From: a virus
Taxonomy: Duplodnaviria > Caudoviricetes
Length of the DNA: 64,000 bases
Reading direction: 5' to 3' (one strand)
IMG/VR virus record: IMGVR_UViG_3300033072_000232
Coordinates: 1-64,000 of that record
Positions 6,482 to 29,031 of this stretch are shown piece by piece; within the stretch, counting starts at the first letter, position 1; each line of letters starts with the position of its first letter. The translations under genes were made by a program, and so were the position numbers. A model generated the notes under the pieces. It worked only from the letters and a program-made list of their open reading frames with translations. It was not told the DNA's origin and ran no database searches.

Positions 6482-7237
6482 ATGCAAACTAAACGTATGA
6501 CACGCCGTGATAAGTTACAAGAAACGCTACCTGTAGTTGGTCGTAAGACTAAAGATAAGTTCAGGGAACAGAATCAACCTGCACCTATTGTTGCAATGAC
6601 TGAGAAACAGAAACAATATCTTGCAATGCTAAACGATCCAAATATTCAGATGATTGTGTGTACTGGTATTTTTGGTTGCGGTAAGTCATATTTGAGTGCT
6701 AGCGTAGCTGCTGATAAATACCGCAAGAATGAGATTTCTAAAATTATTGTAGCAAGACCGTATGTACAGACGGGTAAGTCAGCAGGTGCTAAACCCGGTA
6801 CTGCTTTACAGAAGCTATATCCATATGTCCGTAATGTACTTGATCCTATCAAACAACGTTTAGGTAAAGCACAGTTTGAGATTGCACTAGATGATGGTGA
6901 ACGAGGAAGTATTGAAGTACAAGAACTTGAGTCCATACGTGGTCGCAGCTTTGACGAACCATCATTCCTCCTAATCGAGGAAAGTCAACAGAGTACACCT
7001 GAAGAAATGTTAGCAATCATTACCCGCATTAGTGATAACTGCAAACTTGTGGTATCCGGTGATTTAAACCAACGTGATATTAAGGGTGAGTCTGGATTGA
7101 AATGGTTACTTGAGTTTGTTAAACGTCATAATATTCGCAACGTAGGTGTTATCAGTTTTGACTCTCCTGCCGATGTTGTTCGTGGTGGACTAGTCAGAGA
7201 AATAGCTTTTGGTCTTGTACGGGACAATATTTACTGA
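6482..7237 (+). CDS. phoH: PhoH-like ATPase
   Basis: Walker A GIFGCGKS, ARP, RGRSF, EESQ, GDLNQ; AAGGAG SD before ATG 6482. Confidence 0.92.
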   Translation: MQTKRMTRRDKLQETLPVVGRKTKDKFREQNQPAPIVAMTEKQKQYLAMLNDPNIQMIVCTGIFGCGKSYLSASVAADKYRKNEISKIIVARPYVQTGKSAGAKPGTALQKLYPYVRNVLDPIKQRLGKAQFEIALDDGERGSIEVQELESIRGRSFDEPSFLLIEESQQSTPEEMLAIITRISDNCKLVVSGDLNQRDIKGESGLKWLLEFVKRHNIRNVGVISFDSPADVVRGGLVREIAFGLVRDNIY

Positions 7238-8178: not shown

Positions 8179-8679
8179 ATGAATAATAATCAAATACTAT
8201 CTGAGAACATCCGTTACGATCATCTTACTGGATATTTGTACTACAAGAAAAACAACAAAAGGTTAGTACCTAATGAAGATGGTTACATATTTTACTCACA
8301 AGCTAAACCTACAAAACTTCTGATTAAAGCAAAGGCAAGTAAAGTATGTTGCATGCTTGCTTTCGGCAAACCTATTAGGCAAGATCAGAAAGTACTTCAT
8401 AGAAATCTAAATGAAGAAGATTGCAGGTTGTGTAATCTATCTGTAGTTTCCCGCAAGGTGTACCTTTTGGTAAATGAAGCTAGGCTTAATCTTGAGTCTA
8501 GGTTAAAGTTAGTACCTCATGAAGAAGATCAACATACTTACTGGTTGATACATCGCAATGAAGGTGCTGATAAGAAAGAAATGATCCATGATATTGTAGT
8601 AGCTCAACGTAGATTGCTGAAGATGCAATTGAAGTACGCTAAAATTTTAAGCAAGTATTGTGTGTTCGATGAAGAATGA
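8179..8679 (+). CDS. Degenerate HNH-fold protein
   Basis: RYDHLTGYLYY...EDGYI...KVLHRNLNEEDCRLCNL follows HNH_3 spacing but departs from the usual HR and DHxDG..NN residues. Confidence 0.5.
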   Translation: MNNNQILSENIRYDHLTGYLYYKKNNKRLVPNEDGYIFYSQAKPTKLLIKAKASKVCCMLAFGKPIRQDQKVLHRNLNEEDCRLCNLSVVSRKVYLLVNEARLNLESRLKLVPHEEDQHTYWLIHRNEGADKKEMIHDIVVAQRRLLKMQLKYAKILSKYCVFDEE

Positions 8680-8985: not shown

Positions 8986-9177
8986 ATGATCTGTGTAGCA
9001 TGTGGAGATTATTTTAAACAAGACGCTTATAACAAAACAAATATGTGTTGCAATTGTTTGGATACAATAGTTGAAGACGATCCAGATGCTGAATTAGAGA
9101 TTAGAACCTTACTTAATCCTAACGGTAGAGTAAGGGCTAGTATCTTTGATGATGAAGATGAAGGCTATGGTTTGTAA
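8986..9177 (+). CDS. Small zinc-finger-like protein
   Basis: CVAC...CCNC; AAGGA SD. Confidence 0.65.
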   Translation: MICVACGDYFKQDAYNKTNMCCNCLDTIVEDDPDAELEIRTLLNPNGRVRASIFDDEDEGYGL

Positions 9178-9210
9178 AGTGCATGTTGAAATAAACGTGC
9201 AAGTTTAAAT

Positions 9211-9295
9211 GGAAGTTTGGCAGAGCGGTTGAATGCACCTGACTGTAAATCAGGCTCCTAAAGACACGGTGGTTCGAATCCATCAGCTTCCACCA
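9211..9295 (+). tRNA. tRNA-Tyr (GUA)
   Basis: Acceptor GGAAGTT/AGCTTCC, anticodon arm CCTGA-CTGTAAA-TCAGG, long variable arm, GGTTCGAATCC, encoded CCA. Confidence 0.95.
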
Positions 9296-9299
9296 AGAA

Positions 9300-9423
9300 C
9301 ACGCTACCCGTGGAACCGTTGTCACCTCGGTTGAGTTTGAGTAATCATTCTCAGGTGTCTAATGCGAGTAATTACACTGTCTGTCGCATGAAAAGCAAAA
9401 GTAGACCCAGATAAAGTAACTGG
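9300..9423 (+). ncRNA. Candidate structured RNA downstream of tRNA-Tyr
   Basis: Consecutive hairpins CACG/CGTG, AACCG/CGGTT, TGAG/CTCA, TGCGA/TCGCA, CCAG/CTGG; possible pseudoknot CACCT/AGGTG. Confidence 0.4.
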
Positions 9424-9432
9424 AATTATCTC

Positions 9433-9482
9433 AAACGTATCCTATTGTTTACATTGTTTACTTTAGGATACGTTTTTATTTT
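9433..9482 (+). terminator. Long-stem terminator or processing hairpin
   Basis: 12-bp inverted repeat AAACGTATCCTA/TAGGATACGTTT followed by a T-rich tract. Confidence 0.65.
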
Positions 9483-9555
9483 GTCTAATATAGTACGTAT
9501 TATTACCGTTAATACTTAGTATATTGAATATTATAATAATCATAAAGAAATTGTG

Positions 9556-9630
9556 AGTTAGGCTAGGTTTGAGGTAATTGGCAAACCGAAAGACGAATCC
9601 TCTACGTTTGCCTTAACTTTCTATTAGAGG
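9556..9630 (+). promoter_or_regulatory. Structured RNA leader, copy 1 (three-way junction plus pseudoknot)
   Basis: Outer stem AGTTAGGC/GCCT(T)AACT, GGTTTG/CAAACC, GAAAG, GACG/CGTT with loop AATCCTCTA pairing to TAGAGG. Confidence 0.6.
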
Positions 9631-9646
9631 TTTAGATGGAAGAATA

Positions 9647-10507
9647 ATGAATACAGAAGATAAAAGATATTGTGTATATGTGCATGAGACAATTGATGGT
9701 GATATTTTCTATGTTGGGAGCGGTACTCTAGTTAGAGCAAACACAAAAGAAAGTAGAAACTCAAAGATAAATCTAACTAATAGAGGTGTTAAGTATTCAC
9801 ATAAAGTGAAAGATATTGACTACAACTATAACGTCAGAATATTAAAAGAGAATTTATACAAGAATGAAGCTATTGAGTTTGAATATGAAACTTACCACAC
9901 ATTTAAAGAAATTTGTAATCTGACAAATTCAAAACAACCCTCTAAAGAACGATTTCTAGATGTGAACAGGCTCAGACAAATTCTCGAATATGATGAATCA
10001 AGTCCAAGCTGTTTAAGATGGAAAACGGATATTTACTGTGGAAATGTAATTCAGGTAAAATCAGGCGATGTTGCTGGATGGTTTGATAGGTCTGGATACT
10101 ATAAGGTTTCGGTAGATGGTTTTAATTTGCAAGGTCATAGAGTTGTTGCCACATTATGTGGAATTGATGTAACCGGTAAGTTAGTAGATCATATAGATGG
10201 TAATAAGCAAAACAATAAAATAACAAACCTACGTGCCGCTTCATTCAAGGAAAACAGCAGGAATCGTAAAGTACCAAAAACATCAACAACTGGTATTTCT
10301 GGCATATGTTTAAGAACAACTGGTAATCATGTCAGGTATGTTGTCCAGTGGTTTACAAATGATGGTAAACGTAAATCTAAGTCTTTCAATATAAACAACT
10401 ATTCGGACATAGATCAGGCATTTACAGCAGCTAAAGATTATAGACTATCAATTGTAAAGTCTTTGGGTAATTATTCAGAAAATCATGGAGTAAACAATGG
10501 CATTTAA
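9647..10507 (+). CDS. Free-standing homing endonuclease: GIY-YIG-like plus HNH domains
   Basis: YCVYVH..FYVGSG..RA..EAIEFE; YDESSPSCLRW..HRVV..DHIDGNKQNNKITNL..EN. Confidence 0.85.
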   Translation: MNTEDKRYCVYVHETIDGDIFYVGSGTLVRANTKESRNSKINLTNRGVKYSHKVKDIDYNYNVRILKENLYKNEAIEFEYETYHTFKEICNLTNSKQPSKERFLDVNRLRQILEYDESSPSCLRWKTDIYCGNVIQVKSGDVAGWFDRSGYYKVSVDGFNLQGHRVVATLCGIDVTGKLVDHIDGNKQNNKITNLRAASFKENSRNRKVPKTSTTGISGICLRTTGNHVRYVVQWFTNDGKRKSKSFNINNYSDIDQAFTAAKDYRLSIVKSLGNYSENHGVNNGI

Positions 10508-10862
10508 AAGTAAAGCTGAACTTGGTGGGGAAATTGACAAAAACATCTACATGGGTGGCCCCGTCAATCCTAATAAAAAGGGTAAGACCCGCAGGGAGTT
10601 AGTCCAAGGTGAATTGATGAGTCTATTACGTAGATTCCGGCCGCATTTAACTGATGCTATTCGGCAATCAACTAGGATTCTCAATGATACCCAAGCAGCG
10701 GATTCAAATGTACTCAGAGCTTCTGCTTTGATTCTACAGACTCATCAGAGCTTACTGAAGGATTTGAACGCACTGAGTGAAGATGACCCACAGGAAACAG
10801 TAGAGAGTTTACGGGAAGCTCCTAAGTTTTCGCTTACAATGATTAAGGGTAAGGATGAGTAA
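10497..10862 (+). CDS. Probable terminase small subunit
   Basis: Immediately upstream of terL; helical, 121 aa. Confidence 0.6.
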   Translation: MAFKSKAELGGEIDKNIYMGGPVNPNKKGKTRRELVQGELMSLLRRFRPHLTDAIRQSTRILNDTQAADSNVLRASALILQTHQSLLKDLNALSEDDPQETVESLREAPKFSLTMIKGKDE

Positions 10863-11205
10863 CATCTTTGCACCAGCGTCTAAAAAACAAGAAATGTTTT
10901 TGAATTCAGATGCTACGATTACTATCGCAGGTGGGGCAGCTGGTTCTGGAAAGACCTATACGTCTCTCCTTATTGCACTAAAGTTTATGCAACATCCTAG
11001 AGCTACGGGTGTAATCTTCCGTAGAGTATCTAAGATGCTTACAGCACCGGGTTCTATTTGGCATGAAGCTGTCGCAATGTATTCTGAGATATATCCTAAA
11101 GGTTTAACCATTAGGAACAGAGACTTAGAGATTGTGTTTCCAAACGGGGCACTTTTAAAATTTAGTCATATGCAACATGAGTCAAATATGTTTGACCATA
11201 AGGGT
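10855..11205 (+). CDS. terL: Terminase large subunit, exon 1
   Basis: Adenine-binding Q (KKQ) and Walker A GGAAGSGKT; ends DHKG at the intron. Confidence 0.9.
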
Positions 11206-20514: not shown

Positions 20515-20913
20515 ATGACAATTCTTGCAACTGACACAAAACGCCTAAGCAATCTGCTGAAGGCTGAACTCTGGGCAGAGCTAGGCTATTGCCGCGAAGT
20601 CGTTACCGTAAACGAAGCTGCTGCTAAAACATACGCTGTTGGTACAGTACTAGGTAAAGTAACCGCTGATGGTAAATATAAGATTGCAGTACAAACTGCT
20701 GTGGACGGTAGTGATGCTGCTGCAGCTATCGTACTGGAAGATAAAGCAATTGCAGCTACTACTGATACTAAGCTAGTAGTTCTTGTAAAAGGCCCTGCTG
20801 CTATTTCCAAAGGTGCTCTAGTTCTAGACGCATCATACAACCTAGATGCAGAAAAGAATGTTGTATACGCTGCTCTAGAAGCCAAGAACATTCAAGTTCT
20901 TGAAACTGTTTAA
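20515..20913 (+). CDS. Head decoration protein (lambda gpD-like)
   Basis: GTVLGKVTADGKY...DGSDAAAAIVL directly before the capsid gene. Confidence 0.8.
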   Translation: MTILATDTKRLSNLLKAELWAELGYCREVVTVNEAAAKTYAVGTVLGKVTADGKYKIAVQTAVDGSDAAAAIVLEDKAIAATTDTKLVVLVKGPAAISKGALVLDASYNLDAEKNVVYAALEAKNIQVLETV

Positions 20914-20929
20914 TATAAGGAGCATATAA

Positions 20930-21958
20930 ATGCCTATTACACGTTCATATACTAATGCTTTCGACGTTGTTGATTATACAGCCGAATTAGCCCTCGTGCC
21001 CACTAAGTGGTCGCTACTAAACGATGCCGGTGTTTTCAGTGAAGAATCCGTAGCTACCAATACTGTCACCTTTGAGGAAATTTCTCAGACAGCCACTCTG
21101 ATTGGCGACCAATTCCGTGGTGCAAAACCTCAAGCAAATAGTGACGACTCTCGTAAGATTCATGCTTACAATATCGCTCACTTCCCTGTTGTTGATTATA
21201 TCACCCCTGCCGACATTCAAGGCAAACGGGCATATGGCTCTACAGATGCTGCTGAGACGGAGGCGGCGGTGCTTGCCCGGAAGATGGCTCGTATTTCACG
21301 CGCAATGGATGATACTCTAGAACTTGCACGTTTCCGCACACTAGCTACTCTTACAGCCTATACCCCTAACGGTACTATTACTGCTTCTAACTTTGCTACC
21401 GATTTTGGTGTAACCCAAAAGACTGTTGACTTTGTACTAAGTACAGCAGGTACTGACATTATCGGCAAGACGGAAGAGGTCGTGGCCCACATTCAAGATA
21501 ACGCACAAGGTACTAACGTAACTGGTGTTATTGGTTATGCTTCTCCTGAATATTTTGCAAAGCTAATTGCTCATGCTAAAGTAACTCAGGCGTATCAGTA
21601 CTACCAAGCAGTCGCTGGTCAGGAGATTCTACGAAATCGTGCTGGTAACGACATGAGCATGTATCGTACTTTCACTTACGGTGGTGTGAAGTTCATTGAA
21701 GTTCGTGGTTCCATTGGTGGTGTTCGTCTAGTCCCAGCTAACGATTGTATCTTTGTCCCTCAAGGTGCAGACGATATGTTCGTAACGTACTTCGGCAATG
21801 GTAACAAGATGGATTTGGTTAACACATTAGGTGAGAAACGCTACCTGTGGGTTTATCGCAGTCCTAAAGGTGAATCAATTGACATTGAAGCTGAGTCTAA
21901 CTTCATCAACATTGTTCGCCGTCCAGCACTGGTTGTGCGCGGTCTGACTTCTAACTAA
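20930..21958 (+). CDS. Major capsid protein (lambda gpE-like)
   Basis: 342 aa after the decoration gene, followed by a strong terminator. Confidence 0.88.
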   Translation: MPITRSYTNAFDVVDYTAELALVPTKWSLLNDAGVFSEESVATNTVTFEEISQTATLIGDQFRGAKPQANSDDSRKIHAYNIAHFPVVDYITPADIQGKRAYGSTDAAETEAAVLARKMARISRAMDDTLELARFRTLATLTAYTPNGTITASNFATDFGVTQKTVDFVLSTAGTDIIGKTEEVVAHIQDNAQGTNVTGVIGYASPEYFAKLIAHAKVTQAYQYYQAVAGQEILRNRAGNDMSMYRTFTYGGVKFIEVRGSIGGVRLVPANDCIFVPQGADDMFVTYFGNGNKMDLVNTLGEKRYLWVYRSPKGESIDIEAESNFINIVRRPALVVRGLTSN

Positions 21959-21975
21959 TACTTAGATTGTAGCTC

Positions 21976-22000
21976 AAAGGGATTCTTCGGAGTCCCTTTT
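21976..22000 (+). terminator. Rho-independent terminator (UUCG loop)
   Basis: AAAGGGATTC-TTCG-GAGTCCCTTT-T; extended -10 TGGTATAAT follows at 22002-22010. Confidence 0.85.
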
Positions 22001-22019
22001 ATGGTATAATTTGGTTTTA

Positions 22020-22086
22020 ACTCATGGCTAGGCTGATCCCCGAAAAGAGAACTATCCACTCTCCTGCCACTGAGTAATTGGTGGAT
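22020..22086 (+). promoter_or_regulatory. Structured RNA leader, copy 2
   Basis: ACTCATGGC/GCCA(C)TGAGT, GG/CC, GAAAAG, GAGA/TCTC with loop ACTATCCAC pairing to GTGGAT. Confidence 0.6.
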
Positions 22087-22101
22087 GTTTCGGGAGAAGC
22101 T

Positions 22102-23151
22102 ATGGAAGAAAAGTTACACTATGTGTATGTTCATTTACTAGATGGTAACATTAGATATGTCGGCATTGGCAGGAAATATCAAAATGATACTAAATATACT
22201 CGTGCAAATATCTTCAGTCCAAGTGTAAGAACTAAAGAGTGGCGAGCTATATTTAAAGATACAAAACCAGAGGTTAAGATTCTTGAAGAAAATTTAGAGT
22301 ACATGGATGCAATATCCCTTGAGAATTACATATATCATTCATGTAAAGAAAATAATTTAGCGAATATTACAGAACCAAAACCTGTTGCTGAATTGGATTA
22401 CAAGTATTTTAAACACTGGTTTTATGTTGATGAAACAAGTCCATCAGGATTACGCGTTAACACATCACATAAGAACAACCAAATGTCCAATCGACATGAT
22501 GTGGCGGGAAGTATCGCCACAACTGTACAAGGTAAATCGTATTGGCGGGTCAAAGCAAATGGTATAGGTTATCTCGCTCACAGAGTTGTATACCTACTTT
22601 CATATGGTAAGATTAGTTCTACAAAAGTTATCAACCATATTGATGGTAATGGTCTTAATAACTCACTATCTAATCTTGAAGAAATCTCACAAGAACTAAA
22701 CTGCTACAAGAAGAAAAATACAGTTTTGAATAATGTAGGTATCAAAGGAGCCTCATTTGTTAAATACAAAGGTAAAACTGTTAGTATTTCAGCTAAGTTT
22801 TGTAGAGTTACTAAATCCTTTTGCATTGATTTATTTGGAGATATTGACTCAACAATAAGTGCGGTGTTACGTTGGCAGATGTATCAACAATATAAAGCAG
22901 GTATGCTTCAGTATAAAGATATTGAACCAATCCTCCATCTTTTGCTAGAAGATAAGAGAAAAACTGATGGCGTACAAGGTAAGTATCAACCATTGGAATT
23001 GAAATCTGGGCTATGGAGTGTCAGAGTACCAAATGGCCCATCTGTAAAGTATTCAACACTTACTGGTTTCAGTTCAAAGATTGAAGCTGAGGTAGCTAGA
23101 GATTTATATATCAAAGAACTTAATGAGAAGTTAATTACTTCTTTAGACTAA
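22102..23151 (+). CDS. Free-standing homing endonuclease: GIY-YIG-like plus HNH domains
   Basis: HYVYVH..RYVGIG..RA; VDETSPSGLR..AHRVVY..INHIDGNGLNNSLSNL; likely start ATG 22102. Confidence 0.85.
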   Translation: MEEKLHYVYVHLLDGNIRYVGIGRKYQNDTKYTRANIFSPSVRTKEWRAIFKDTKPEVKILEENLEYMDAISLENYIYHSCKENNLANITEPKPVAELDYKYFKHWFYVDETSPSGLRVNTSHKNNQMSNRHDVAGSIATTVQGKSYWRVKANGIGYLAHRVVYLLSYGKISSTKVINHIDGNGLNNSLSNLEEISQELNCYKKKNTVLNNVGIKGASFVKYKGKTVSISAKFCRVTKSFCIDLFGDIDSTISAVLRWQMYQQYKAGMLQYKDIEPILHLLLEDKRKTDGVQGKYQPLELKSGLWSVRVPNGPSVKYSTLTGFSSKIEAEVARDLYIKELNEKLITSLD

Positions 23152-23160
23152 AGGAAAACA

Positions 23161-23601
23161 ATGGCTACATCTACTGAAATTCTATACGTTCGTTATGAAC
23201 TAGCAGATACTGACCCTGCTTTACCTTTAATGTCAGATGATGAGATAGATTATTTTCTGACCAAACACTCAGGTTCTATCCCAAGAGCAAGTATTGATGT
23301 AGCTCGTGCTGCTTTGTTTAAACTAAGCATGAATTCCAATGATGAGCAAGTTGATATATTCTCCATCAAAGGCTCAAAAAGTTCAAATGCGTATAAAGAA
23401 GCACTGATGTTATACATCAAGAACAATGCTCTGAATCCAATTAACCAAACATTAAGTGGCTATGTAGGTGGTGTATATAAAGATGATATGCTAGCTAATG
23501 ACTTGGATACTAACAACAATTTAGTACCTAATCCTTCTAGCGATACATTAGTTATTAAAGTATCTTCACCGTTATCTGAATCTGATTACTTTTCTGCGTG
23601 A
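23161..23601 (+). CDS. Head-tail connector (adaptor)
   Basis: VRYELADTD...MSDDEIDYFL; position after capsid. Confidence 0.7.
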   Translation: MATSTEILYVRYELADTDPALPLMSDDEIDYFLTKHSGSIPRASIDVARAALFKLSMNSNDEQVDIFSIKGSKSSNAYKEALMLYIKNNALNPINQTLSGYVGGVYKDDMLANDLDTNNNLVPNPSSDTLVIKVSSPLSESDYFSA

Positions 23602-24460: not shown

Positions 24461-24868
24461 ATGACTTCACCTATTCTATCTACAAAGAAAGCAGCGGAAG
24501 CAAGGTTAGCTACGTTGAGTATCCCTACTGCGTATGAAAACGCTGAATTTAAACCTACATCAGGTCAGAAGTATTTGCATGTTCAATTTGATATTCGTAC
24601 TCCTGATGACCCTGTAATTGGGGATGTTTACTACAGAGAAAGAATATCATTTCAGGTATTTGTTTGTGATGTATTAAACAAAGGTACTGCTAGTGCTATT
24701 ACTACAGCAGAACAAATCAGAGACTTATTCAAGAAGGGTACTTCTCTGACTCAGGATGGTTACAGTATTTATGTATTGGAAACTCCTAGGATTTCAGGGT
24801 CTATTAAGACTAATGATCGACTTGTATTACCGGTGCTAATAGACTTAGTAGTGGACGTGTTCTTATGA
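24461..24868 (+). CDS. Tail terminator protein
   Basis: AYENAEFKP...FQVFV...GT..A...AEQIRDLFKKG; precedes tail tube. Confidence 0.7.
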   Translation: MTSPILSTKKAAEARLATLSIPTAYENAEFKPTSGQKYLHVQFDIRTPDDPVIGDVYYRERISFQVFVCDVLNKGTASAITTAEQIRDLFKKGTSLTQDGYSIYVLETPRISGSIKTNDRLVLPVLIDLVVDVFL

Positions 24869-25758
24869 AATATGTGGTTTACGTTCACAAGGATAACTGT
24901 GGAACTATATTCTATGTTGGGCATGGGACTATGAAAAGAGCCTACAGTCTTGAGCTATCCGAAACCTCTGGTAAAGGAACTGGTCGCGGTAAGAAATACT
25001 CAGAGTTTGTAAAGTCTATTTCTTTTGATTATACTTGTGAAGTAATTAAATCCAATATGACTAAGAAAGAGGCGGAAGAGTATGAGTGCAATTTATATGA
25101 TGTTCTAATAGAAAAATACGCACTTGTAAACAGTAATAGACCTAGTATTCAGTTTGATTTTTCTAAAGCTGAATTAGATGAACGATTTGTTTACGATGAA
25201 ACCTCACCATCTTGTCTAAGATGGAGATTCGACAGATTTAATAAGTGTAAAGTTAAGGTGGCATCATCTGGTGACTGCGCTGGGCATTTAGCAGCAAATG
25301 GGTATTATGTTGTAAAATTTAATAACAGAACAATAAAAATACACAGGATAATTGCAACAATTTTTAACTTAGATATTGAAAATAAATTTATTGATCATAT
25401 AAACGGTTGTAGATCGGACAATAGACTATTAAATTTACGAGCTGTTACCCCTCTTGAGAACTCACATAATAAGAGAATTTCAAAGAACTCAAGTTCTGGT
25501 ATACCGGGAGTAACTTACTCTGCTAGGTATGATAGGTGGCGTGCATCTATAAGTTATGACGATAAAGAACATTGTACGTACTTCTCTTGTAAGAAGCATG
25601 GGTTCGATGCTGCAAGAGATTTAGCAATCTCATACAGATTAGCACAACTTAATCTACTCAAAGAAAATGGTGTCAAGTACACCGATAGACACCTAGGTGT
25701 AGAACAGGAACCTGAACCTGATAATCAGGTCATTTTGCAAAATGAAAATTTAAATTAA
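24865..25758 (+). CDS. Free-standing homing endonuclease: GIY-YIG-like plus HNH plus AP2-like
   Basis: YVVYVH..FYVGHG..RA..EAEEYE; YDETSPSCLRW..IHRII..IDHINGCRSDNRLLNL..SGIPGV..WRASI. Confidence 0.85.
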   Translation: MKYVVYVHKDNCGTIFYVGHGTMKRAYSLELSETSGKGTGRGKKYSEFVKSISFDYTCEVIKSNMTKKEAEEYECNLYDVLIEKYALVNSNRPSIQFDFSKAELDERFVYDETSPSCLRWRFDRFNKCKVKVASSGDCAGHLAANGYYVVKFNNRTIKIHRIIATIFNLDIENKFIDHINGCRSDNRLLNLRAVTPLENSHNKRISKNSSSGIPGVTYSARYDRWRASISYDDKEHCTYFSCKKHGFDAARDLAISYRLAQLNLLKENGVKYTDRHLGVEQEPEPDNQVILQNENLN

Positions 25759-28046: not shown

Positions 28047-28185
28047 TACGAATAGCTTTATAAAAGGCTACTGGTAGAAGATTACAAACCAAGATTATAC
28101 AAGGAGTAATTAACCTTGTTAAAACAGTATTCCCTTGTACTGCATCTTGGTTTACCTATTTATCAAGGAGACATTAGGGAGTTAT

Positions 28186-29031
28186 ATGAAACAAGATTAT
28201 TACGTTTATTTACATCGTAGGAATGATACTAACGAAGTGTTTTATGTAGGTAGTGGTAGAGACAACAGAGCTTATTCTAAACATAGTAGAAATAAGCAAT
28301 GGAAAGCAATCACAGATTCTGTTGAATATACTGTAAGTATTGTGATGAGTAACCTATCTAAAGAAGATGCAAGAGAAGCTGAAACTTTATTAATTGAAAT
28401 GTACGGTGATCAGGTTGTAAATGTGCATAAAGATAATACCGCACATGATCTAAATTCTTACTTTGATTTCTTGAATGATTTGTTTTATGTAAATCCTGAA
28501 AGTCAAACTGGTCTTAGTTATAAGATAAATAGATATAAGAATAAAGGCGCTTTATCTAAGAAAGCAGGCGATGTTGCTGGTAAAGTTGCCGTACTTCCAA
28601 ATGGCACATATAGAGGATATGATCTGAAGGTTACCTTTCCAGATGGTATTAAAAGAAACTTACAGGTACATAGAATAGTTTGGTTGTTATCTACAGGTTC
28701 AGTTTCTGGTGAATTGGTTATTGATCACATTGATGGAAATCCTTTAAATAACGCAATTGCTAACTTGAGAGAAGTTTCGCATCAACAGAACTCCAGAAAT
28801 AGAAAACCAAAGACAGACGGTATTCCGGGTGTGTATATTAAGCAAGGACTTCAATGGGTTGCTAGTTTACCTCATGAAGGTAAAACAAGAATCAGAGGAT
28901 TTTCTATCAGCAAGTATGGTAATGATGCTGCAAGAGAAATGGCAATTGAAGCTAGAAAAGAATTCCTCAATGAAATGAATAAAACAAGTGAGCCATTTTC
29001 GGATAGGCACACGTTATTAAAATTGGAATAA
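28186..29031 (+). CDS. Free-standing homing endonuclease: GIY-YIG-like plus HNH plus AP2-like
   Basis: YYVYLH..FYVGSGRDNRA..DAREAE; VHRIVW..IDHIDGNPLNNAIANL..QN; GGGAG SD before ATG 28186. Confidence 0.85.
   Translation: MKQDYYVYLHRRNDTNEVFYVGSGRDNRAYSKHSRNKQWKAITDSVEYTVSIVMSNLSKEDAREAETLLIEMYGDQVVNVHKDNTAHDLNSYFDFLNDLFYVNPESQTGLSYKINRYKNKGALSKKAGDVAGKVAVLPNGTYRGYDLKVTFPDGIKRNLQVHRIVWLLSTGSVSGELVIDHIDGNPLNNAIANLREVSHQQNSRNRKPKTDGIPGVYIKQGLQWVASLPHEGKTRIRGFSISKYGNDAAREMAIEARKEFLNEMNKTSEPFSDRHTLLKLE

Follow-up and report, generated by a model that had tools for sequence, protein, structure and literature searches.

Divergent int-alpA leaders ahead of predicted nuclease genes in a phage genome, with a proposed two-box translational switch

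At positions 9556-9630 of a phage genome, a compact RNA leader with a three-way junction and a pseudoknot precedes a predicted nuclease gene, and a second leader of the same design and different sequence is found at 22020-22086. What kind of RNA is this, does it belong to the nucleases, and how could it act? The window (the whole stretch of DNA that was analyzed) comprised the opening 64 kb of a virus record of 81,776 bases that is 99% complete. Its capsid protein was 47-50% identical to the counterparts from Limnohabitans phage DC31 and Curvibacter phage P26059A.

Two leaders of one architecture

Copy 1 was located after a tRNA and copy 2 after the major capsid gene, both before nuclease genes, and the order terminator-like hairpin, -10 box, leader, and nuclease gene was common to the two. 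The features of the copy 1 locus were as follows:

9211-9292: tRNA
9433-9483, plus strand: terminator-like hairpin after the tRNA, read from the sequence, with a 12-bp stem (9433-9444/9464-9475) and then a T-run
9509-9537, plus strand: sigma-70-like promoter, TTAATA, 17 nt, and TATAAT (9532-9537), a consensus match only (10/12)
9556-9618, plus strand: three-way junction of copy 1, from the sequence and covariance models
9596-9604, plus strand: loop 3, AATCCTCTA, able to pair with box 1 or box 2
9625-9630, plus strand: proximal box (box 1) TAGAGG, pseudoknot partner of CCTCTA through six Watson-Crick pairs, 6 nt past P1
9633-9639, plus strand: distal box (box 2) TAGATGG, which differs from box 1 by an extra T; pairs with loop 3 at -5.5 kcal/mol
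9636-9647, plus strand: mini-ORF ATG GAA GAA TAA, overlapping the start of nuclease gene 1 as TAATG
9647-10507, plus strand: nuclease gene 1, 286 aa, with a GIY-YIG-like N-terminal domain, HNH_3, and an AP2-type DNA-binding domain

The hairpin at 9433-9483 was absent from the pattern-scan list because its loop exceeds 8 nt. In the copy 1 junction, the outer stem P1 was formed by 9556-9563/9610-9618 with T9614 bulged after 4 bp, P2 by GGTTTG/CAAACC (9566-9571/9582-9587), and P3 by 9592-9595/9605-9608 with a loop of 9 nt; the joining segments were TA for J1/2 (9564-9565), GAAA for J2/3, and T9609 for J3/1. Candidate base pairing between J2/3 and the U-rich linker that follows P1 (GAAAG/CTTTC) fitted copy 1, was inconsistent in copy 2 and in the relatives, and was rejected. 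The duplex of loop 3 with the proximal box amounted to -7.5 kcal/mol. The distal box, whose "box plus one extra base" form recurs in relatives, overlaps the mini-ORF ATG and the GGAAG Shine-Dalgarno (SD)-like run preceding ATG 9647.

The mini-ORF pointed out in the earlier note is present and overlaps ATG 9647, but as a conserved feature it did not hold, upstream ATGs being found in 14 of 88 phage tails (among the matches listed) and in 12 of 68 bacterial tails. Since upstream ATGs are infrequent in the family and the ATG in question lies inside the distal loop-3 box, the mini-ORF is read as incidental. The ATGGAAGAA that it has in common with the gene 2 start may be a relic of a shared cassette ancestor.

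The copy 2 locus contained the following features:

20930-21958: major capsid gene (Pfam Phage_cap_E, E 3e-58)
21976-22001, plus strand: terminator-like hairpin directly 3' of the major capsid gene, read from the sequence
22002-22010, plus strand: extended -10 box TGGTATAAT, read from the sequence, which would place the transcript start 1-3 nt before P1
22020-22075, plus strand: three-way junction of copy 2, from the sequence and a full-length Rfam int-alpA alignment
22051-22059, plus strand: loop 3, ACTATCCAC
22081-22086, plus strand: proximal box GTGGAT, pseudoknot partner of ATCCAC through six Watson-Crick pairs, 5 nt past P1
22092-22107, plus strand: translation start region with SD GGGAG (22092-22096) and ATG 22102
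22102-23151, plus strand: nuclease gene 2, 349 aa, with a GIY-YIG-like N-terminal domain and HNH_3

Here, P1 comprised 22020-22028/22066-22075 with C22070 bulged after 4 bp, P2 was reduced to GG/CC (22031-22032/22040-22041), and P3 (22047-22050/22060-22063) again carried a loop of 9 nt, with TA, GAAAA, and CT as J1/2, J2/3, and J3/1. The loop 3/proximal box duplex was calculated at -8.3 kcal/mol. Among the public sequencing runs listed for 20900-23200, no RNA run carrying the region turned up. The distal box TGGA lies within GCTATGGAA (22099-22107) at the start-codon sequence ATGGAA and forms just 4 contiguous pairs with loop 3 (-4.1 kcal/mol). The architecture described in the earlier note was recovered in both copies: an outer stem GGC/GCC with a 3' bulge, TA, two hairpins, GAAA(A)G, and a pseudoknot. 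The pseudoknot pairing was kept despite the change of sequence between the copies (CCTCTA/TAGAGG and ATCCAC/GTGGAT), and covariation was also observed family-wide.

Regarding the encoded proteins, the HNH_3 half of the "dual-nuclease" designation was clear in both genes, and the GIY-YIG half stayed below threshold: the N-terminal domain matched Pfam PF01541 GIY-YIG with 13.3 bits (E 0.0065; cut-off, 22.6 bits), and Foldseek E-values for the structural matches were above 0.1. In five sequences of this domain, Y-x-Y, YVG, and E were invariant and R was largely kept. Its AlphaFold model could be placed on the I-TevI catalytic domain (1ln0_B) with a TM score of 0.70 over the target and a probability of 0.96, and UvrC (1yd6) was also matched. 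A dual nuclease appears plausible from these motifs and from the model, and the gene behind each leader is predicted to encode a free-standing GIY-YIG-like/HNH nuclease.

Membership in the int-alpA family

Folding energies revealed no excess stability over shuffled sequences (z = +0.26 for copy 1 and -0.09 for copy 2). A loose hand-made descriptor (P1-TA-P2-GAAA(A)G-P3-P1') detected both copies and one false match; with a background of 1.3 junctions per simulated genome, or 0.23 when a 5-bp loop/tail match was included, it was too unspecific to serve as proof. Comparison with covariance models was informative. No named family had been recognized in the earlier note, but both copies aligned end to end (model positions 1-71 of 71) with Rfam RF02996, int-alpA. 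In 300-nt scans, copy 1 reached 32.1 bits (E 4.5e-5) and copy 2 reached 24.2 bits (E 0.0041); over the whole window, the E-values were 0.0095 and 1, respectively. Both scores lie below the gathering score of the family (35.8 bits), and neither copy was listed at that threshold.

The leaders resembled int-alpA in helix order, in the junction bases CUAG, CGAAA(A)G, and (C)CUG, in the 9-nt P3 loop that pairs with the tail, and in the phage/mobile-element setting. All three helices and the 9-nt loop were present in both copies, each of which measures roughly 65-75 nt. Copy 2 contained all three junction sequences (CUAG, CGAAAAG, and CCUG), and copy 1 had CUAG, CGAAAG with one A fewer, and UUG, so that it differs from int-alpA in its J2/3 (GAAA) and its J3/1 (U). 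The loop-tail pairing of the family (consensus CCuU with AgGG) extended over 6 bp in each copy. Further differences of the window copies from int-alpA were their AT-rich helices, the one-base P1 bulge, a P2 of 22 nt in copy 1 and of only 2 bp in copy 2, the absence of an SD hairpin, and their site before nuclease genes in the structural module instead of between int and alpA.

Reciprocal searches gave the same assignment. MAFFT alignments of the two copies came out misaligned, and a covariance model, R1, was built from copy 2 alone. It retrieved canonical bacterial int-alpA RNAs at the positions of the pattern matches (L247, L226, L222, L219, and others) as well as copies in metagenomic phage contigs. 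A family model of 58 sequences (R2), from which copy 1 was left out, detected copy 1 with 32.0 bits (E 1.8e-7), the next-best match in the window reaching 13.7 bits; copy 2, itself part of the training set, scored 68.4 bits. Model and descriptor scans of the window and the rest of the 81.8-kb genome revealed no further copies. Among phage relatives, one (L120) scored 50.9 bits against Rfam int-alpA, above the cut-off, and the second copy on another contig (L129:4511-4580) fell exactly on the 35.8-bit cut-off. As phage relatives reach the Rfam cut-off, the window copies are divergent members of one continuous family and no look-alikes. The leaders are a real structured RNA, and the model comparisons establish both of them as divergent new members of a class that was already known, int-alpA (RF02996). 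The name-giving context, proximity to the integrase and alpA of integrated elements, was not found here; gene context is no structural criterion of membership. The Rfam int-alpA search missed the copy in Curvibacter phage P26059A described below, a megablast of positions 9000-11000 against phage records gave no match, and a search for related loci with the protein of gene 22102 retrieved no relatives.

We give next to no probability to a self-cleaving ribozyme or another known class (hammerhead, twister, HEARO/omega RNA). A small three-way junction from a phage, with GAAA among its conserved junction bases, might be taken for one, yet Rfam at E-values up to 10 listed only int-alpA and one chance lncRNA match, and the hammerhead core CUGANGA is absent, J1/2 being only UA. 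A HEARO/IscB omega RNA was rejected on the missing Rfam match at E up to 10 and on the protein, which is GIY-YIG-like with HNH_3 and AP2 and not IscB; omega RNAs are far larger than a leader of ~70 nt. A known riboswitch class was likewise rejected, as no Rfam match to any riboswitch was obtained.

Relatives were collected from two sources. A pattern search of IMG/VR for one subfamily gave at least 120 stretches, at least 111 of them unique, and a canonical-form pattern found 95 places in bacterial genomes, mostly of Burkholderiales and Rhodocyclales, the group from which the closest relatives of this phage also draw their hosts, with some in Aeromonadaceae. Most sequences came from these two patterns, in which the junctions and part of P3 are preset, and a bias toward certain downstream genes is possible. 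In the 58-sequence alignment, 92.6% of the cells were paired, compared to 70.7% in shuffles and 37-55% with the partners slid, and compensatory changes occurred in 14 of 15 pairs. The junction bases (C)UA(G), (C)GAAA(A)G, and (C)CUG were near-invariant across the family, and the helices varied freely. The pseudoknot had been left unconstrained by the search pattern. In 94 unique phage sequences among the matches listed, the loop/tail helix nevertheless averaged 5.62 bp, against 3.99 bp for permuted loops (200 trials, maximum 4.24 bp), and nearly all of the 31 loop types among the phage matches listed had a matching box.

R1 also detected a third copy in Curvibacter phage P26059A, which fills the capsid slot there as well, flanked by the capsid gene and an HNH gene. 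In this copy P2 is flipped to CCTC/GAGG, the pseudoknot is changed to ATTCAC/GTGAAT, and both boxes are changed together (GTGAAT and ATGAAT). An SD hairpin was present in 64 of 68 bacterial tails and in 19 of the 88 phage tails among the matches listed; in the GC-rich bacterial members, the distal box is placed in the loop of this local hairpin (64/68). Neither window copy had a stable SD hairpin.

Genes behind the leader and movement of the cassette

The earlier note had tied the leader to HNH/GIY-YIG genes, a link that did not survive the survey of downstream genes. The 113 ORFs starting 20-50 nt after phage-subfamily motifs (among the matches listed) were mostly DUF1376 "primosomal" proteins, O-like/DnaD-like initiators, and primase-helicases; a methylase was also found, and HNH genes occurred just twice. 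In bacteria, where the leader is set among the cargo genes of genomic islands, the downstream ORFs were hypervariable, with 34 unrelated clusters among 59 ORFs, mostly without a Pfam family. Conversely, the leader stood directly upstream in only 2 of 54 viral loci with homologues of nuclease 1 (L004 and L032), and it preceded homologues of the fourth paralogue in none of the 14 loci scanned (of 24). Within this genome, a model-detectable leader was absent at five of the seven HNH_3 genes; it is missing from the paralogue at 24865-25758 and from another three HNH genes. The varied downstream genes, together with the many HNH homologues that lack it, indicate that the leader belongs to promoter-proximal cassettes in general.

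These distributions bear on two roles proposed in the earlier note, in which the GIY-YIG/HNH protein would bind the leader to regulate its own synthesis, or the leader would accompany the protein as an RNA cofactor. Two, perhaps three, of the four paralogous nuclease genes in this genome carry a junction leader, the orthologous cassette of the Curvibacter phage has one as well, and the insertion carries promoter, leader, and gene together. With the same leader heading unrelated genes and missing from most nuclease loci, a nuclease-specific role is nevertheless very improbable, and both the cofactor and the operator were rejected on distribution as largely refuted.

The movement of the cassette could be followed at the capsid gene. 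In Limnohabitans phage DC31, the capsid gene is followed directly by an orthologue (50% identity, E 3e-43) of the window gene 23161-23601. As the block of about 21960-23160, with promoter, leader, and nuclease, is absent between those genes in DC31, this comparison of gene order shows the capsid-slot cassette to be an insertion relative to that phage. The insertion position is common to the window phage and Curvibacter phage P26059A.

One loop, two boxes, and a proposed translational switch

The motif was always found on the coding strand, with no terminator before the ORF. The element begins shortly downstream of a -10 box, by a few bases, and ends 17-25 nt ahead of the start codon; among genuine members, the distance to the start codon was 19-47 nt. 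In 53 of the 107 relatives listed, a -10-like hexamer, often with TGn, occupied a constant position (-19 relative to GCTA), which puts the predicted start of transcription on the first bases of P1, the arrangement also seen in copy 2.

Examination of the tails revealed two boxes with complementarity to loop 3: the proximal box, which forms the pseudoknot, and a distal box at the SD or the start codon. When one representative was taken for each of the 77 distinct loop sequences among the matches listed, the second, non-overlapping site paired with its own loop at a mean of -6.82 kcal/mol, compared to -4.20 kcal/mol with foreign loops (p 9e-14). In most sequences, the distal box ended 1-6 nt ahead of the ATG; in about nine, box and ATG overlapped. 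Often the distal box uses 5' loop bases that are spared by the proximal box (CAGACCC/GGGTCTG versus TTTAGACC/GGTCTAAA), and often its sequence is that of the proximal box plus an additional base (AAGGG and AAGCGG; AACGGG and AACTGG); its own loop register and these extra-base forms suggest that it is selected in its own right. Across the family, the two boxes are about equally strong. Many boxes and loops are rich in purines or pyrimidines and resemble an SD, which inflates the complementarity; the non-SD loops TCGTCA, AGTTAC, and CCCGTT likewise show both boxes. Sequence comparison establishes the two-box complementarity and the fixed promoter distance.

We consider that these divergent int-alpA leaders probably form the 5' end of dedicated transcripts, in which two partners would compete for loop 3 as an anti-ribosome-site strand. 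A cis-acting translational switch is the best-supported mechanism, which we propose with moderate confidence; it is the part of the earlier reading that stood, in agreement with strand, promoter, and the two boxes. Switching as such and its direction are what we infer from this arrangement. With loop 3 on the proximal "parking" box, the SD and the AUG would be free and translation would be on; with loop 3 on the distal box over the SD or start codon, binding of the 30S subunit would be blocked and translation would be off. The outcome of this competition for loop 3 would be determined or sensed by the conserved junction, and a ligand, a protein, temperature, or folding kinetics are candidate triggers. 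The weak distal boxes of the window copies (-5.5 and -4.1 kcal/mol) imply that the off state may rarely form there.

The same box strengths bear on a constitutive 5' module without switching, which would protect the mRNA 5' end and keep the ribosome-binding region open as a stabilizer or enhancer in cassettes. The proximal box was stronger in 23 of 30 sequences of the phage set and by 2-4 kcal/mol in both window copies, so that the pseudoknot may always form; moreover, the element begins at the predicted transcript 5' end, and a gene association of the ligand type was not seen. We regard such a module as a possibility of modest weight, since it leaves unexplained the second loop-complementary box at the SD/AUG across 77 loop types, often in another register, and the equal box strength in the bacterial set. 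A trans-acting sRNA appears quite unlikely. In that case, loop 3 of a leader fragment would pair with its own or paralogous ribosome sites and provide dose feedback like the antisense RNAs of plasmid copy-number control. Rfam types RF02996 as "Gene; sRNA", loop 3 is complementary to the translation start region, and many downstream genes are replication initiators, for which dose control is common; on the other hand, strand is constant, the start codon is near, no terminator separates motif and ORF, and the loop 3 of each window copy matches the boxes of its own gene and not those of the other copy, which fits cis action.

Within the cis-acting switch, the constant junction bases amid varying helices suggest a specific tertiary fold and a possible sensing part. 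That the int-alpA junction senses a small molecule or a host or phage factor, tipping loop 3 between the parking box and the ribosome site, is rather unlikely on the sequences at hand. If true, it would make int-alpA a widespread riboswitch-like class gating the translation of phage, satellite, and genomic-island genes by cell state, the gated genes being replication and selfish or accessory genes, including homing nucleases.

To our knowledge, no function is known for int-alpA, and a literature search found no functional study of it. The motif was reportedly listed as a candidate RNA by Weinberg et al. in their 2017 survey. The window adds two AT-rich copies that head self-contained promoter-leader-gene cassettes, and the motif gains a testable design, in which two boxes, the distal one on the ribosome-binding site, compete for a single loop and a promoter stands at a fixed distance. 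If this design holds, it would explain the dosing of many phage add-on and replication genes, and the family label would be corrected from "sRNA" to "cis-regulatory leader". Curvibacter phage P26059A and its host offer a related cultured system for tests.

Three known systems invite comparison. SAM-II and preQ1-II are SD-sequestering pseudoknot riboswitches. Like them, the leaders combine a compact conserved core in the 5' leader with an H-type pseudoknot at the ribosome-binding region; unlike in those riboswitches, the SD lies outside the core fold, the loop would toggle between decoy and SD, and the gene context suggests no ligand. In homing endonuclease genes of T4-type phages (I-TevI, I-TevII, I-TevIII, segB, and Aeh1 mobE), the ribosome-binding site is sequestered by hairpins that form only on read-through transcripts, so that control is exerted by promoter choice (PMC2988022). 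There, too, RNA structure at the ribosome-binding site limits translation of a selfish nuclease and the promoter immediately upstream sets the 5' fold, but the T4-type hairpins have no three-way junction, pseudoknot, decoy box, or sequence relationship to the leaders.

In repZ, translation of a leader peptide is required. A hairpin loop in IncI-alpha/IncB repZ/repA pairs beside the ribosome-binding site of the replication initiator (Asano and Mizobuchi 1998, via PMC8383071), the pseudoknot activates translation, and the competitor is a trans antisense RNA (PMC8383071). There, a competitor for the hairpin loop likewise decides translation, and many int-alpA-type leaders also precede replication initiators. 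In the leaders, the competitor would instead be a second box in cis; no antisense RNA was evident and no Rfam PK-repZ match was obtained. By analogy with the activating pseudoknot beside the ribosome-binding site of repZ, the direction of control in the leaders could be reversed. The junction scaffold and the decoy box in cis set the leaders apart from both the T4-type hairpins and repZ.

A further structure was noted before the paralogous gene 28186-29031. Rfam, R1, and R2 did not detect it, and a search for relatives of it found none, so that it is at most a possible member of the family:

28087-28181, plus strand: candidate divergent third leader, from the minimum-energy fold

At minimum energy, this candidate folds into precisely a three-way junction (z -4.12; none of 200 shuffles matched its stability), with P1 at 28087-28095/28144-28152, P2 at 28099-28104/28114-28119, J2/3 TAAAA, and P3 at 28125-28130/28137-28142 closing the loop TCCCTT. 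Its two candidate boxes are AAGGAG (28165-28170) and, at the SD, TAGGGAG (28175-28181).

Nuclease paralogues and neighbouring genes

Four paralogous, putatively dual-nuclease proteins with an N-terminal GIY-YIG-like domain and an HNH_3 domain are encoded at:
9647-10507, first nuclease gene
22102-23151, second nuclease gene
24865-25758, third nuclease gene
28186-29031, fourth nuclease gene

Identity to the first paralogue was 21-37%. In the aligned sequences, the GIY-YIG-like domain has invariant Y-x-Y, YVG, and E positions, with the R largely retained, and its predicted fold matched that of I-TevI with a TM-score of 0.70 by target (Foldseek E >0.1). The 82-kb genome carries seven HNH-type genes, a count that includes a small ORF at 8179-8679; seven free-standing nucleases in a genome of this size is an unusually heavy load. 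This ORF, located 1 kb 5' of leader copy 1 (9556-9630), gave a sub-threshold HNH_3 match of 17.5-18.5 bits. The following tRNA genes were also identified, the first just 5' of copy 1:
9211-9292, plus strand, tRNA gene whose variable arm is long and whose anticodon loop carries GUA (Tyr-type), 58.8 bits
55645-55716, minus strand, tRNA gene with a CAU anticodon, 63.1 bits

Predicted folds before the second and fourth nuclease genes

Upstream of the fourth nuclease gene, folding predicted a further structure:
28087-28181, candidate third junction leader

Its minimum-energy fold was a clean three-way junction (z -4.12) in which J2/3, the linker between helices P2 and P3, reads TAAAA, and both AAGGAG (28165) and the SD TAGGGAG (28175) were complementary to the loop TCCCTT. 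Upstream of it lies TGGTAGAAG, similar to TGGTATAAT of copy 2 (22020-22087). This region is possibly a third junction leader, with int-alpA kinship only a candidate assignment: homology is unproven because neither Rfam, the covariance model from copy 2 alone, nor the family model from 58 sequences excluding copy 1 matched it, and a search for relatives returned none.

In copy 2, CCCGAAA (22039-22045), comprising the P2 3' strand and J2/3, is complementary to TTTCGGG (22088-22094), which continues into the SD GGGAG. This pairing replaces the junction in the minimum-energy fold of the 98-nt leader, which has -27.2 kcal/mol and a z of -1.58, and it may represent a third conformer; pairing of this type was not consistent in relatives.

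Leaders in phage and bacterial relatives

As in this genome, among the matches listed one phage contig often carried two leader copies with differing loops and boxes, for example:
L063, 8623-8699 (plus strand) and 6798-6860 (minus strand)
L129, 4511-4580 and 10518-10584

In the second L063 copy, both P3 (GCAA/TTGC) and the innermost base pair of P1 carried covarying changes. Among the listed phage relatives (L057-L176), about half had an extended -10 box (e.g., TGATACAAT or TGATATAGT) at a fixed distance 5' of the leader, in the region 14-22 nt upstream of GCTA; the leader would therefore form the first bases of the transcript. No obvious -35 element was present 5' of these leaders.

Canonical int-alpA RNAs of Burkholderiales, Rhodocyclales, and Aeromonadaceae (L177-L271) were followed by hypervariable ORFs of unknown function, which fell into 34 clusters among 59 ORFs, one being DUF6387. 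These bacterial loci look like a place where integrated elements exchange their cargo genes. In 64 of 68 bacterial cases, a local hairpin held the SD and the distal box, the second predicted partner of the P3 loop, in its own loop.
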